Of a stretch of DNA of 25,064 bases, positions 16,633-25,064 are shown piece after piece. Within the stretch, counting starts at the first letter, position 1. Every line of letters starts with the position of its first letter. A model generated the notes under the pieces. It saw nothing but the letters and a program-made list of their open reading frames with translations. It was not told where the DNA came from and ran no database searches. The position numbers and the translations under genes were made by a program. Origin of the DNA: a virus (lineage: Duplodnaviria > Caudoviricetes); the IMG/VR virus record IMGVR_UViG_3300032233_001855, positions 1 through 25,064 of that record. One strand, 5' to 3'.

Positions 16633-17413
16633 TACGTTTCTCCCAACAATAGATATCTGCTCCGCATGCGTTGCGTAATCGATCACGCGCTACTCTCAAC
16701 ACTGTACCACTCCCTGCAAAGGGATCAACGACAAGACCCCCTACCGGGCAGAGTTGATCCACGAGACGTGCTACCAATTGCTCCGGCATCAGCGCCGGGT
16801 GATTGCCACCTTGCCGGCGTGCAGGATTGACGGTCCAGACATCGTGCGTGCCGTACTCGGCAAACCCACCATGCTCCGTGCGGGAGAAGTACGATTTGGC
16901 GGAACGTGCAAAGACGTGGACGACCTCGTAGGAAAGGTTCCAACGATCAGTCGCCGTCGTGGGAAGTGGCGAGGTCTTGTGCCAGATTATCGTATTACGG
17001 CACCGCCAGCCTCGGTCGATCATGGCGATCTTGAGACGCTCCGGGACCCCGGCTTGCGTCTTGAGTGGCAACCCGGCAAGCGATCGCATCGGCGCAGACC
17101 CTGCCTTCGCCCGGTTGGAAGCGGAGACCCCGGACTTGTCCGAATGCCGGTACTGTCCAGGTTGGTTGGCGTACGTGTCAGCAATGTTGACCGCGACCCA
17201 TCCGGTAGGCCGAACGCATGACCACGCTTCGTGCAGAATGCCTGCGAGGCGGTTAATGTAATCGAGGACGACGGGTTCCGTGCCAAGTTCGCGCACATCA
17301 TCCCCGTAGGTGCGTTGGCACCAATACGGGGGTGAGGTAAGGACGAGATCGACCGATGCCGGGGCAAGCTCCCGCAGGAACTCGCCGGCATCCTTGTTGG
17401 TGATCATGTCCAA
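16607..17413 (-). CDS. DNA N4-cytosine/N6-adenine methyltransferase, beta class
   Basis: SVDLVLTSPPY catalytic motif precedes VVDPFAGSGT SAM-binding motif; also IIWHK, DVW, HPA..P..L. Confidence 0.93.
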   Translation of the reverse strand: MDMITNKDAGEFLRELAPASVDLVLTSPPYWCQRTYGDDVRELGTEPVVLDYINRLAGILHEAWSCVRPTGWVAVNIADTYANQPGQYRHSDKSGVSASNRAKAGSAPMRSLAGLPLKTQAGVPERLKIAMIDRGWRCRNTIIWHKTSPLPTTATDRWNLSYEVVHVFARSAKSYFSRTEHGGFAEYGTHDVWTVNPARRQGGNHPALMPEQLVARLVDQLCPVGGLVVDPFAGSGTVLRVARDRLRNACGADIYCWEKRNAGNLQTV

Positions 17414-18042
17414 AGTGGCACACGCTTGTAGTCAAGACCCTTCATCCACCCAATCTGTTCCCAAATGCGCCGAGGGTTCATCGCCGCTGCATTTCCATCG
17501 ATTGAATCTGCGCGCAGCAACTCATGACAATGCCGAATACGCTCGGAATTATTTACTCGGCCGACATGTATCCACGTGCGTCGCAATTTCGCTTCCTGAC
17601 AGATTTTCACGACCTCATGTCCCATCTTCCACCGCGTTGTACCTCCGATGAATAGTGCATCTATGGCATCCCACGGAACCGCTTCTGCTGTCAAGCCATC
17701 TTGGCATACGAGTGCGGGACGAGCGCCAATCGATCGCAATCCCGGCAAGACTGGCTCCGTAAGTCTCCATGTGCCGAGATGGTCTCCAACGATGTCCGGC
17801 GCTGCGGTGAAAAGAGGTGGCCGGTTTGCAACCGCCATGAGTTTGGAAACAAACGACAAATACTTTTCAAGATTGAACGGAACCTTGCTGGCGTAGCATC
17901 CATTGTCAATCGCATACGGTCTGATGGTCTGTGAGGTACGGGAAAACTTTGGAGAAAGTGGCGTGCAAAGATGTCCGATCCAATCCGGCATCCCTTGAAA
18001 ATCCATTGTCGCCCCGGTCAGGAAAATCAAGAAAACTTCCAT
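17404..18042 (-). CDS. TGT/DpdA-like 7-deazaguanine transglycosylase
   Basis: TGT-like motifs in order: DNGCY, APDIVG, VCQDG, LFIGG, IHVGRV, DSIDG; adjacent to a VUT transporter. Confidence 0.7.
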   Translation of the reverse strand: MEVFLIFLTGATMDFQGMPDWIGHLCTPLSPKFSRTSQTIRPYAIDNGCYASKVPFNLEKYLSFVSKLMAVANRPPLFTAAPDIVGDHLGTWRLTEPVLPGLRSIGARPALVCQDGLTAEAVPWDAIDALFIGGTTRWKMGHEVVKICQEAKLRRTWIHVGRVNNSERIRHCHELLRADSIDGNAAAMNPRRIWEQIGWMKGLDYKRVPLWT

Positions 18043-18557
18043 CGTCCCAATGCAAATAGAAGGGTGATGAGAATCTTTCCAACGACCTGTCCTTCAACAA
18101 AGGCAAGCGACCCGAACGCGACAAGCAGGAAGATGGCACTATCGACAACGCTCCCGGCTAATCCAGAAGCAATGGTTGCCACCCATGCTGATTTCTTCCT
18201 AAGTGGTGTGTAGATTGCAAAATCACAAAGCTCGGACAATGCAAACGCACACGCGCTGGCAACCACCAATGGTGGAGGCGCAAGAATCGCTGTCAAGAAG
18301 ATGCCAGCGGCTATTGCAACGGATGCCCAGCGTGTGCCGTAGTAATCTTGCACAACATCGCGCAACCACAGCGATGCACCTACCATGAACACCCCGGATG
18401 GTGCCATCAATCCGAAACCGACCGGCAATAGCCGTGGGCCTCCATCTTGCATTGCCCATCCGACATGCACGAGCATCAGGTTTGCGCCAGGTATTGTCAG
18501 AACGTATCCGGCAAAAGCAAGGATTCCAAGCCAATTGGATGCCTTCGGCAATCTCAC
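18027..18557 (-). CDS. VUT/YhhQ-family queuosine-precursor (preQ0/preQ1) transporter
   Basis: Multi-TM; LRDVVQD.YG, AS..AF..SEL.DFAIY..LR, SG..GSVVDSAIF..AF, GQVVGK; GTG 18557 overlaps the upstream stop. Confidence 0.85.
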   Translation of the reverse strand: MRLPKASNWLGILAFAGYVLTIPGANLMLVHVGWAMQDGGPRLLPVGFGLMAPSGVFMVGASLWLRDVVQDYYGTRWASVAIAAGIFLTAILAPPPLVVASACAFALSELCDFAIYTPLRKKSAWVATIASGLAGSVVDSAIFLLVAFGSLAFVEGQVVGKILITLLFALGRWKFS

Positions 18558-18853
18558 TCCCGTCGCCTCAGTTCCGCAGTGATCATCCGCACTAGTTGCG
18601 CCATCGTCGTTGGCTGCACTCCGATGATGGCCCACGTCTCATACGCGACGTGCCTTGTCAGGTACTCGCAAGCAACAAAGGTGATGAGTGAGTGCCACTC
18701 AAGAGGATCCTTCACATTGTTTGGAATCACGCCACCGAAGCCCATCCGCACGTGGAAAACCACATCATTGACAAAATGTATCCAACCGTAATAGACAAGC
18801 GGAACCGGCTCCCACGCACCAGGAATCCCATCGTATTTGATCTGTACGCTCAG
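18554..18853 (-). CDS. Hypothetical protein (start uncertain)
   Basis: Fills the gap between the HTH gene and the VUT gene. The frame extends to 18970; the best-coupled start is CTG at 18853. Confidence 0.55.
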   Translation of the reverse strand: MSVQIKYDGIPGAWEPVPLVYYGWIHFVNDVVFHVRMGFGGVIPNNVKDPLEWHSLITFVACEYLTRHVAYETWAIIGVQPTTMAQLVRMITAELRRRE

Positions 18854-20653: not shown

Positions 20654-21302
20654 GCCGTCCGGTGCGGATGCACTTGAAGCCGTCATTGCTGCTGGCGATC
20701 TGAACAACCTGTCCGCGTCACAACGCCTCGACCTGTACCAGCGGACGTGCGACACCCTCGGACTGAACCCACTCACTCGACCGCTTGAGTACCTCAAGCT
20801 CCAGGGCCGGACCATCATGTATGTACGCAAGGAAGCGTGCGACCAACTCAGGCGCATCCATTCGATCACGATCCAGATCGTCGAACGCGTGATCGAGAAT
20901 GATGTATTGACGGTGGTTGCGCGTGCCTCGACCCCAGAGGGCCGGTGTGATGAGGAGATAGGATCCGTGTCGGTGGCCGGGTTGCGTGGTGAAGCACTCG
21001 CCAACGCACAGATGAAGGCGCTGACGAAGGCGAAGCGTCGTGCAACCCTGTCGATCTGCGGGCTTGGATTCCTTGACGAGACCGACAGTGAAGCTGTCGC
21101 GACGGTTGCGGTTCCTGCCCTGGCAGTGCCCAGCAGACCACAGAAGTCGCCGGCGGAGTATTACCGGGAACTGGCTATCGTAGCCGAGGAAAAGGGTCTC
21201 GCCGAACACATCCTGCCGATTGATGACGACATGCCGGCGGATGAGATCCGTGAGGCATATACCTTCCTGAAGAAAGCCATTGCATCCAATGCAAGTGCAT
21301 GA
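20631..21302 (+). CDS. Single-strand annealing protein (RecT/Bet/Rad52-like)
   Basis: C..LGLNPL, NAQMKALTKAKRRA..SICGLG..DE; GGAGG precedes ATG 20631. Confidence 0.78.
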   Translation: MGRELAPRPSGADALEAVIAAGDLNNLSASQRLDLYQRTCDTLGLNPLTRPLEYLKLQGRTIMYVRKEACDQLRRIHSITIQIVERVIENDVLTVVARASTPEGRCDEEIGSVSVAGLRGEALANAQMKALTKAKRRATLSICGLGFLDETDSEAVATVAVPALAVPSRPQKSPAEYYRELAIVAEEKGLAEHILPIDDDMPADEIREAYTFLKKAIASNASA

Positions 21303-21957
21303 GAGTGCTGAATCGACCGAGCTTCGGGCTGCATTGCGTGACGGATGCGAACGTGCGTGGACGGCGATCTACGAACGCTATACCCCGAAACTGATTACCT
21401 ATGCGCTGGCGACATGCCAGTACCGTTGGCGGTACGACGTTGAAGCGATCGTTGCAGCGGTCTGGCTGTCCACTTGGAACCGGCGCGACAAACTGGATGA
21501 CAACATCTTGCTTCCGCACCGCTTCCACGGCTACCTGCAACTTGGGGTCCTGAACCACATCCGCACGCAATCGCGGAGGGATACGTTCAGGCAGGAACTG
21601 CCGATGGCATCCTACAGGAAGCTTATCGAGGAGGGCCAGGGTGATGAGGAGGATTTCACCACGCTGATTGAGATCATTGGTGGCCGGATCGAATCCGCCC
21701 CAAACCCTGCCGAGCTGTTCGAGAGAGCCGAGACGGTTGCCGAGGTGCGCGAGATCCTCCACGAGATGGCTACCGATCCGTGGCACGGCAACGAGACGCG
21801 CGGGCAAGTGCTTATGCTCGCGCATGGTAACGGGTTGAGCTACGAGGAGGCCGCAGAAAAACTGGGCATCTCGTTCTGCGGAGTAAAAACCAAGATATTC
21901 CGGGCACGCCGTTCGTTCACAAGGAAGTGGAACGAGAAACACGGGGGATTGGTGTGA
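21289..21957 (+). CDS. ECF-type sigma-70 factor
   Basis: Region 2 (AWTAIYERY.PKL..YA...FHGYL...NH) and region 4.2 (GLSYEEAAEKLGIS..GVKTKIFRAR). Confidence 0.88.
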   Translation: MQVHESAESTELRAALRDGCERAWTAIYERYTPKLITYALATCQYRWRYDVEAIVAAVWLSTWNRRDKLDDNILLPHRFHGYLQLGVLNHIRTQSRRDTFRQELPMASYRKLIEEGQGDEEDFTTLIEIIGGRIESAPNPAELFERAETVAEVREILHEMATDPWHGNETRGQVLMLAHGNGLSYEEAAEKLGISFCGVKTKIFRARRSFTRKWNEKHGGLV

Positions 21958-22457
21958 GAATTCCTCGAGCAATCAGGCAGGCAAACGCACCCAAGGCGCA
22001 GAAGCCTGCCATTGAACTGGACATCGATCCGACCGAGGCATGGATTCGGTGGGCATCCGGCCTGCATCTGTCACCGAGGTTCGACCGGTTTGCATACGAC
22101 GTCGCGTTCCTGACGCATTTGGTCAACCTCATTGGTGAGGATCCAGAATGCATTGAGGACGAGATCGAGACCATCGAGGCTGATGCGCCTGCTGTTGATG
22201 ACCGACCAATGCATCAAGGCACAGGAAACACCAAGGGTGTCCAGGCGCACCATATGAAGGCGTGGCTGCAAATTGTGAACCTATCCCGGCAAGCTGGTTC
22301 GGATCTTCTCGGCTGGCACCGTTCATCGATCGTCAAGGCCCTTAGTGGGGAACGCAACGTCACTGAGGGACAGGCGGTGCGGTTCCTTGAAGTACTTGCA
22401 AAGTTGGACGACTGGCAACGGTTGCAGTACTTTGCGATGGTGAAGGGGATGGAATGA
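21954..22457 (+). CDS. Hypothetical protein, possible C-terminal HTH
   Basis: GTGA/ATGA coupling on both sides; LSRQAGSDLLGWHRSSIVKALSGER is HTH-like. Confidence 0.55.
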   Translation: MRIPRAIRQANAPKAQKPAIELDIDPTEAWIRWASGLHLSPRFDRFAYDVAFLTHLVNLIGEDPECIEDEIETIEADAPAVDDRPMHQGTGNTKGVQAHHMKAWLQIVNLSRQAGSDLLGWHRSSIVKALSGERNVTEGQAVRFLEVLAKLDDWQRLQYFAMVKGME

Positions 22458-23815
22458 GGTACTTGAGTGTCTGTTCCGGGGTCGGCACTGACCACATTGC
22501 GTGGGAGGGTCTCGGGTGGGAGTGCGTTGGGTTCAGTGAGATCGAACCGTTTCCTTCAGCAATTCTGGCGCATCGGTATCCGGGAGCAAGGAACTATGGC
22601 GACTTCACGACGATCCCTGCCGACATCGGTTCAATCGACCTTTTGGTTGGAGGAACCCCCTGTCAATCTTTCTCCGTTGCCGGACAGCGTGCAGGGCTTG
22701 ACGATCCACGGGGAAATCTCACCCTTGAGTTTGCGCGACTGGCTCGCCGGGTACGCGCTCGCTGGATCGTCTGGGAGAACGTCCCTGGCGTCCTTAGCAG
22801 TGATGGGGGAAGGGATTTCGCTGCAATCCTCACAGCGTTTCGGGAGTGCGGGTATAGCGTCTGCTACCGGGTGCTGGACGCTCAACACTTCGGAGTACCC
22901 CAGCGACGCCGTCGCGTCTTCGTTGTCGGATATTTTGGAGACGACTGGCGACCATCTGCCGAAGTACTTCTTGAGCAAGCAAGCATGCGCGGGGATTCTC
23001 CGAAGGGCGGAACGAAGGGGCAAGAAGTTGCCGGAACGCTTGGCGGAGGCTCTGGAAGCCGTGGTTGGAGCAGCGACCTAGACCGCACGACGTTCATCCC
23101 GGTTGAGGTTGATGCGTCAAGGGTGAATGGATGCGTCACCACCACCTATGGAAGCAAGAACTATTCCAATCATGAAGAAGTCATGTCAGGCAGTCTGGTG
23201 AGTGGCGCATGGGTTCCAATGCCGTTTGACTTGGCTCAAATCACGTCGAAGCTCAACTATTCCCAAGCTCGCCCCGGCGACCCGGTACCTCCGCTGAACA
23301 CGGTCAGTCAGATGCATGTAGCTCTTGCGGTCAAGACCGCACAGACGTCCTCGAATGGCATCGGTGTGGCCGAGGACGTGGCGTACACGCTTGACGGGGC
23401 GCAGGGACAGGCAATCGCGTTCAGCGCCAAGGATCACGGCGGCGACGCCGGCCCGCTTAGCCCGACGCTCCGGCCAGGAACCCACGACGCCAGCCATGCG
23501 AATGGCGGGGTCATGCCCGCGCTAGTACATCAGAACAAAACCAATAACGTTTCGGTTCTCGATTATTCGCCAAGCCTGCGATCTGGTGCCAGTCACAATA
23601 GTCACCTAGCACTATCAACGGTCGTGCGCCGTCTGACACCTAGGGAGTGCGAACGCTTGCAAGGGTTGCCGGATGACTGGACATTGGTTCCGTATCGTGG
23701 CAAGCCTGCTGCTGATGCACCCCGGTACAAGGCGATTGGGAACGGGATGGCTGTGCCGGTGCTGCGGTGGATTGGACAGAGGATTGCAATGGTTGAGGGA
23801 GAGATGAACGCATGA
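22454..23815 (+). CDS. DNA (cytosine-5) methyltransferase
   Basis: Motif I CSGVG, IV GGTPCQSFS, VI WENVPG, VIII PQRRRRVF, IX RRLTPRECERLQG, X GNGMAVPV. Confidence 0.95.
   Translation: MRYLSVCSGVGTDHIAWEGLGWECVGFSEIEPFPSAILAHRYPGARNYGDFTTIPADIGSIDLLVGGTPCQSFSVAGQRAGLDDPRGNLTLEFARLARRVRARWIVWENVPGVLSSDGGRDFAAILTAFRECGYSVCYRVLDAQHFGVPQRRRRVFVVGYFGDDWRPSAEVLLEQASMRGDSPKGGTKGQEVAGTLGGGSGSRGWSSDLDRTTFIPVEVDASRVNGCVTTTYGSKNYSNHEEVMSGSLVSGAWVPMPFDLAQITSKLNYSQARPGDPVPPLNTVSQMHVALAVKTAQTSSNGIGVAEDVAYTLDGAQGQAIAFSAKDHGGDAGPLSPTLRPGTHDASHANGGVMPALVHQNKTNNVSVLDYSPSLRSGASHNSHLALSTVVRRLTPRECERLQGLPDDWTLVPYRGKPAADAPRYKAIGNGMAVPVLRWIGQRIAMVEGEMNA
22596..23081 (+). CDS. Nested +1-frame ORF inside the C5 methyltransferase gene (possible second subunit)
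   Basis: Frame open 22467-23081; ATG 22596 follows GGGAGCAAGGAA; C-terminus LSDILE...KYFLS..ACAGILRRAERRGKKLP looks like real protein. Confidence 0.65.
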   Translation: MATSRRSLPTSVQSTFWLEEPPVNLSPLPDSVQGLTIHGEISPLSLRDWLAGYALAGSSGRTSLASLAVMGEGISLQSSQRFGSAGIASATGCWTLNTSEYPSDAVASSLSDILETTGDHLPKYFLSKQACAGILRRAERRGKKLPERLAEALEAVVGAAT

Positions 23816-24605: not shown

Positions 24606-25064
24606 GTGAAGAAGATCTTTATTTCCACGACGATGGGACTTGATGAGGCAGTGCTTGCGGTTGCGGATGAGGATCCGATGGCGGCGATGTTCTGGCCGTG
24701 GTTGCTCTGTGCGTTGGACGATTGGGGTCGTGCGTCGTCGAACCCCCGGACGATCAAGGCGCAGGTGGTCCCGTCGTTTGCTTCCATCACGCCGGATCAC
24801 ATTGCCGGGTGGATTGCGCTCTACGAACGGCACGGACTGGTGACGGTCTACGGTCCGGCACTGGCGGTGTCAGGGGATGCGTGGCGGAGGTACCAGACGC
24901 AGATACCCAACTCCAAGCGCGAGAAGGAAGGTTCGAGACTGCCTCCGCCACCAATCCGCGCTAGTTCTAGCGAGAACGCGCTAGTTTGCGCTAGTTCTAG
25001 CGAGAACGCGCTAGTTTGCGCTAGTTCTAGCGAGAACGCGCTAGTTTGCGCTAGTTCTAGCGAG
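24606..25064 (+). CDS. Phage replication initiator / replisome organiser (N-terminal part, runs off the window)
   Basis: My translation from GTG 24606: MKKIFISTTMG...FWPWLLCALDDWGR..NPRTIKAQ..P...WRRYQ...SRLPPPP. The DD.GR motif is typical of these initiators. Not in the ORF track because it has no stop. Confidence 0.75.
   Translation, partial: MKKIFISTTMGLDEAVLAVADEDPMAAMFWPWLLCALDDWGRASSNPRTIKAQVVPSFASITPDHIAGWIALYERHGLVTVYGPALAVSGDAWRRYQTQIPNSKREKEGSRLPPPPIRASSSENALVCASSSENALVCASSSENALVCASSSE
24958..25064 (+). repeat. Perfect 30-bp tandem repeat (3 copies plus 17 bp), probable iteron array
   Basis: GCGCTAGTTCTAGCGAGAACGCGCTAGTTT at 24958, 24988, 25018 and partial at 25048. Confidence 0.92.

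Follow-up and report, generated by a model that had tools for sequence, protein, structure and literature searches.

A conserved gene nested in the +1 frame of a phage cytosine-C5 methyltransferase gene likely encodes a partner subunit

The methyltransferase locus

We analysed a window of 25,064 nucleotides, the whole of the stretch taken from virus record IMGVR_UViG_3300032233_001855, the completeness of which is estimated at 28%. Genes for a prohead protease, capsid, tail tube and tape-measure protein are present, and DNA like that of the window was found in freshwater and lake metagenomes. The methyltransferase gene shares an ATGA overlap with each of its neighbours, and no nuclease was recognised beside it among the domain matches of the flanking genes in this incomplete record. 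Its product, called alpha here, is arranged in the order motifs I-VIII, variable region, motif IX and motif X, where the motif names follow standard usage for C5 methyltransferases. The presence of motifs I-X, with the catalytic Pro-Cys and ENV, identifies alpha from its sequence as a member of the C5 cytosine DNA methyltransferase family (PF00145). An AlphaFold model of alpha alone was confident at residues 1-175 and 390-450, with pLDDT above 90 in the core. The coordinates of all features are collected in Table 1.

The first-pass annotation had described an open +1 frame of 204 codons at 22467-23081 inside the methyltransferase gene, and the frame, which counts from a GTG, is present as described. 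A Shine-Dalgarno-like sequence had also been noticed before the ATG at 22596, and we find there GGAG at 22583-22586, 9 nt upstream, and AAGGA at 22588-22592. Motif IX stays in the main frame at this locus, again as reported. The product of the +1 frame is called beta below.

Table 1. Features of the methyltransferase gene and of the frame nested in it (window positions)
Feature	Position	Strand	Evidence
C5 cytosine methyltransferase alpha chain, 453 aa	22454..23815	+	PF00145 (E 1e-56), TIGR00675, phrog_116
Upstream part of the open +1 frame, from GTG 22467, 43 codons; probably incidental	22467..22595	+	229 stops against 307 expected in main codons 1-55
Shine-Dalgarno-like GGAG and AAGGA before ATG 22596	22583..22592	+	sequence; comparison across relatives
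Beta chain gene nested in the +1 frame, start ATG 22596, 161 aa	22596..23081	+	stop depletion, excess amino acid conservation, homologues, phrog_16143, homology to EcoHK31I-type beta
Alpha catalytic Pro-Cys, motif IV, C70	22658..22663	+	P69 and C70 invariant in 79 aligned relatives
Beta 81-93, predicted pairing with alpha motif VII strand (136-140)	22836..22874	+	co-fold contacts; alpha 128-140 is read from these bases too
Alpha motif VIII (QRRRRVFVVGYFG); beta 103-115, with LSDILE, lies across it	22901..22939	+	codon register
Beta 110-127, LSDILE..KYFLS	22923..22976	+	co-fold: predicted packing on alpha motif IX
Alpha variable region, presumed target recognition	23039..23617	+	poorly conserved; partly swapped in a close relative
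Alpha motifs IX and X, main frame	23627..23770	+	IX and X both in alpha in 145/160 genes

Three further observations concern the surroundings of the gene. A phage-encoded ECF-like sigma factor lies two genes upstream of the methyltransferase (21280-21957). On the minus strand, opposite to the structural genes, a Vut_1 (PF02592) transporter-like gene adjoins a phrog_15826 gene (17404-18635). At the end of the contig, inside an open reading frame beginning at 24606 on the plus strand, a perfect 30-bp tandem repeat is present in 3.6 copies (24958-25064), which could be either an artefact of assembly or iterons of an origin that belongs to a replication initiator.

Selection on the +1 frame

The open frame in this window alone is weak evidence, since 923 of 20,000 synonymous recodings of the gene (4.6%) also kept codons 48-208 open, and the proof is comparative. 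That percentage is what would favour regarding the frame as a by-product of the conservation of alpha, of GC content or of an RNA or DNA signal, with no functional protein made. Homologous loci (160) were fetched with alpha residues 1-170 only, and 159 were scorable for stops; L104, in which the motif VIII pattern was absent, was left out of the counts, and L170, L177 and L182, in which the motif patterns were unmatched, were not scored for stops. A non-redundant set of 113 genes below 85% identity, the window's included, was compared with a null model that fixes the alpha amino acids and GC.

Stops in the +1 frame of homologues would have spoken against the nested gene, and we looked for them: from motif IV to ten codons past motif VIII, the frame is stop-free at 158 of the 159 scorable loci. 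Counted along the 113 genes, 6 stops were observed against 95 expected at codons 56-66, 1 against 474 at codons 67-160 and 2 against 74 at codons 161-195, and the depletion then ended abruptly (75 against 79 at codons 196-215). The +2 frame, scored as a control over codons 67-160, contained 388 stops where 333 were expected, and the +1 frame of the seven single-chain controls that were scored contained 5-11 stops. Kinship among the genes inflates these counts, but the sharp boundaries of the depletion cannot come from kinship. Suppression of synonymous variation, proposed earlier as a check, was seen as well: in the 104 of these genes that are complete, the entropy at four-fold degenerate third positions was 1.01 and 0.62 bits where the frames overlap, compared to 1.85 and 1.82 bits elsewhere.

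The amino acids of the +1 product were themselves constrained. Their entropy fell well under the synonymous null inside the overlap only (1.03 bits at codons 131-163, where the null gave 1.94; 2.13 and 2.23, respectively, for codons 2-45), and the constraint was strongest at codons 164-195 (1.06 against 2.51 bits expected), where alpha varies. This peak speaks against a by-product, and the null that found 474 expected stops had already held the residues of alpha and the GC content fixed. In addition, the homologous frame of M.EcoHK31I is a proven protein, according to PMC2836561. We therefore regard the by-product explanation as very improbable. The depletion of stops, together with the drop in third-position and amino acid entropy in the overlap, leads us to conclude from these alignments that the nested gene is real and that its protein is under purifying selection from about codon 56-60 to about codon 200.

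The position of the depletion also bears on the start. Stops are depleted between motifs IV and VIII and not upstream, so that the sequences place the beginning of the conserved gene near ATG 22596, giving 161 residues, and GTG 22467 was dropped as a candidate start. The 43 codons ahead of the ATG are probably incidental and not part of the gene. The overlap with motifs I-VIII claimed at first thus holds for motifs IV-VIII and extends about 45 codons beyond, and does not hold for motifs I-III. Ribosomes would initiate internally at ATG 22596. A +1 ATG before codon 70 is found in 89 of the 113 relatives and in none of the other 24. A Shine-Dalgarno match of at least four bases precedes 44 of these 89 first ATGs; the corresponding shares are 52% for main starts (n = 87), 25% for internal +1 ATGs (n = 297) and 18% for codons overall. 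By Shine-Dalgarno energy, the first ATGs (-3.2) were not separable from internal ones (-3.44). RNA run X16, the source of which is a relative without the gene, covers only 22427-22447 and the flanks, and contigs are no measure of expression.

Predicted partnership of the two chains

The segment SLSDILETT..LPKYFLS..ACAGILRRA, noticed at the C-terminus of the +1 product in the first reading, is present, and the main frame was correctly said to be without a segment of this type: the LSDILE pattern was found in alpha in 0 of 113 relatives and in the +1 product in 111 of 113. The beta C-terminal segment was seen in 158 of 160 genes, the remaining two being cut by contig ends. In single-chain controls, a V.DILE..Y-like segment follows motif VIII in frame. 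The beta profile matched two of seven such controls at E below 0.01 (3e-4 and 3e-3), two marginally and three not at all, which lends limited weight to the idea that beta provides what single-chain enzymes carry at this point. Since alpha is without the segment, beta has it and the controls carry it in frame, beta may supply the post-motif-VIII segment in trans. Word-limited searches of 332 database homologues revealed no protein in which beta continues motifs VI-VIII in frame. The most constrained residues of beta lie in its C-terminal helices (128-152), which have no counterpart in alpha.

Co-folding of the two chains, suggested as a check in the first-pass annotation, gave a score of 0.83 for the pair and 0.00 for the best of three controls. 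The mark used for this score is reached by 116 of 157 solved pairs and by 2 of 215 mismatched pairs. Runs agreed in at least 47% of contacts, and pLDDT of the partner was at least 53; the alignments were self-built, and the score may in part reflect likeness to solved single-chain enzymes. The surest contacts formed two sets. One linked beta 82-88 with alpha 136-140, on the motif VII strand; in the other, motif IX of alpha, at residues 395-398, met beta 114-124. As a prediction, the model supports binding of alpha and beta. In the predicted complex, beta 81-93 would extend the catalytic sheet by one strand at its edge, and beta 110-126 would take the place of the post-motif-VIII segment, packing on motif IX and bracing the catalytic and small domains. 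The beta profile had no relevant match among PDB sequences (one irrelevant match at E 0.14). A natural protein in which beta is joined to IX-X (P0041) was modelled at a mean pLDDT of 63 and gave weak rows only in a fold search of 48,161 chains, where a C5 methyltransferase, 3qv2_A, ranked 27th, tied with unrelated helices (Z 4.1, 83 residues aligned at an rmsd of 3.0; model 92-244 against chain 187-304), a weak match that is compatible with beta supplying the missing segment.

We infer that the 161-residue product and the 453-residue main chain assemble into a two-chain DNA cytosine-C5 methyltransferase, with a probability of about 0.8, and that alpha would depend on beta for activity. Beta is likely to be a separate partner subunit that is usually missed by annotation. 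The original suggestion had left open a heterodimer or an enzyme assembled by frameshifting; the first is favoured by homology and register with the EcoHK31I type, by selection and by the co-fold score. Under the second, a programmed +1 frameshift would fuse the catalytic part of alpha and the +1 segment into a single polypeptide. Joined frames do exist in the databases, where 10 of the 332 homologues link motifs I-III to beta and 49 link beta to IX-X. However, relatives of a beta-IX-X protein mostly have the layout of the window (68 genes of exactly this layout among 99 loci, of which 80 were fetched with that protein), and the fusions near the clade of the window are exceptions, perhaps errors. 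Within the gene, LSDILE (beta 110-115) lies on alpha codons 157-162, inside motif VIII, and a single chain cannot carry both; a shifted product would stop at 23081 and lose the variable region together with IX and X; and the depletion of stops starts about 100 codons ahead of motif VIII. Homopolymers of five bases occur at just two places, C5 at 22656 and G5 at 22805. We reject assembly by frameshifting because of the shared codons, the missing IX-X and the early onset of selection, and consider it hardly tenable.

Related enzymes and the spread of the nested gene

According to PMC2836561, the beta chain of M.EcoHK31I (E. coli, YGGCCR) is encoded inside alpha in another frame and carries motif IX. 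Alpha is inactive without beta, internal ATGs gave rescue, and deletions of beta from residue 37 onward lowered activity and raised the dissociation constant. We made the comparison with a near-identical E. coli gene (L172), found with a primer from the supplement of that paper. Such a gene was present in 81 of 5,426 E. coli genomes and was not found in the plasmid collection searched. It encodes a 309-residue alpha and a 176-residue beta, and its beta, which carries motif IX, scored 73 bits against our family profile (E 1e-22, among about 100 frames).

The beta of the window is identical to the EcoHK31I-type beta at 18 of 66 residues, ungapped and in the same codon register. In both enzymes the second chain is encoded wholly inside the alpha gene, in its +1 frame; the two beta chains are homologous and keep one register over motifs VI-VIII, the motif VIII strand coinciding with beta 110-115 in the window and with beta 65-70 in the EcoHK31I-type enzyme, and both alpha chains carry motifs I-VIII and X. 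Window residues 82-88 correspond to EcoHK31I beta 37-43, and 81-93 to 36-48. The deletions from residue 37 thus correspond to window beta 82 onward, where the best-predicted contacts lie, so that the predicted interface is independently matched. The EcoHK31I beta extends through motif IX, which is essential in that chain, and its alpha is without it, whereas the beta of the window ends after the C-terminal helices and alpha keeps IX; motif IX is on beta in none of the 160 genes. The E. coli gene also adjoins a restriction endonuclease, unlike the gene of the window, which has no recognised nuclease neighbour in a record estimated to be 28% complete. Because the defining placement of motif IX differs, the sequences make the window enzyme a variant of the M.EcoHK31I type and not a strict member.

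For the same reason, and because alpha here has all ten motifs and a core that folds alone in the model, the necessity of beta in M.EcoHK31I does not transfer automatically. Beta could be translated and bind alpha as an accessory chain that stabilises, regulates or times an enzyme already active by itself, and its most constrained helices, which match nothing in alpha, would suit such a role. The near-total retention of beta (158/160) and the absence of LSDILE from alpha in all 113 genes fit a structural need better, and assembly in M.EcoHK31I is driven by the N-terminal part of beta, which the two enzymes share. We consider an accessory role unlikely and favour the two-chain enzyme. It would be an optional, solitary phage methylase that shields phage DNA from host restriction.

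The 161-residue beta has 570 homologues among 873 candidates, mostly of 150-170 residues, and its profile gathered 5,980 clusters at 50% identity. Protein searches listed 113 phage records and, at E up to 1, 536 plasmid records, of which 448 are from Escherichia. Beta matches PHROG 16143 (phrog_16143, E 2e-8), and no Pfam or NCBIfam model matched it. Ten phage genes hand-picked from 60 spread rows comprised four with a clear beta match, three with a weak match and three single-chain genes, the latter with 5-8 stops in the +1 frame. The nested gene is kept across thousands of protein clusters, has no Pfam or NCBIfam model and is absent from the annotation of the records examined for P1 dmt, SJ46 dmt, Omega gp127 and Dove 107, in which the frame is present. 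To our knowledge, prokaryotes rarely have a gene that lies entirely within another on the same strand and shares its function.

The arrangement varies among known systems. Phage MM1 of Streptococcus pneumoniae (AJ302074.2) has a nested +1 frame, ORF14 (141 aa, E 2e-24), annotated as 'putative methyltransferase' inside ORF13; judged from the annotation the layout is that of the window, with a nested beta without IX and with IX in the main chain, although ORF14 has a shorter C-terminus. The 754-residue Dmt of coliphage P1 (L164:4413-6677), annotated as bifunctional (adenine, perhaps cytosine), has a nested +1 frame of 163 codons (codons 100-262; E 1e-30) in the same register, which starts later than that of the window. 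In mycobacteriophage Omega (gp127/gp128) the nested +1 frame keeps this register as well (E 7e-48), and in Omega and Dove the enzyme is in three parts: motifs I-VIII, a nested beta and a downstream IX-X gene (L161:2191-3495, L162:2266-3384). M.AquI, as described in a passage of PMC3404938, is a two-polypeptide C5 methyltransferase with motifs I-VIII on one chain and a second chain that completes the enzyme, as proposed here; there the small chain, unlike the beta of the window, comprises IX-X and the distal variable region, and nesting is absent from that description.

The principle is therefore already known from M.EcoHK31I and M.AquI, and the layout is already annotated in MM1. No survey or test of the nested phage family was found in the literature searched, and an earlier description may exist. 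The portions of PMC3706429 and PMC6755750 that we consulted make no mention of a nested beta family, and the out-of-frame gene of PMC11855218 is a different one, an HNH insertion. We lean somewhat towards a broader proposal, in which M.EcoHK31I represents one variety within a large class. C5 methyltransferases of phages and mobile elements, in their thousands and with P1 Dmt among them, would be enzymes that require several chains, one of them an overprinted subunit missed by annotation. Both faces of the predicted interface, beta 81-93 and alpha 128-140, would come from a single stretch of about 40 bases, IX-X would move between alpha, beta and a third gene in close relatives, and recoded synthetic versions would be inactive. 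If beta is needed, many phage methylases have been mis-described as single proteins, and codon-optimised clones would lose activity.

The methyltransferase gene is, on read evidence, an optional cassette, since a close relative (runs X3, at a depth of 255, and X16) is without the whole gene, position 22447 joining 23846 with 43 other bases between. Another relative keeps 22454-23097 with part of the variable region replaced (run X2, joints at 23097-23389 and 23521-23612). The locus illustrates how an enzyme divided in two can hold its halves together within a single cassette, acquired or lost as a unit.

Rearranged forms were observed elsewhere. In a group of gut phages (L264-L282), the methyltransferase starts near motif IV and ends with IX-X-I-III, with the nested beta kept, and from its sequence it seems to be circularly permuted; among close relatives in this group, the IX-X module is found in alpha (L266-268, L270), in beta (L264, L265, L269) or in a third open reading frame. 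Paenibacillus phage Gohan (L176:1201-2238) has an open +1 frame of 236 codons with weak matches to the beta N-terminus and to motif IX, possibly an EcoHK31I-like or longer layout.
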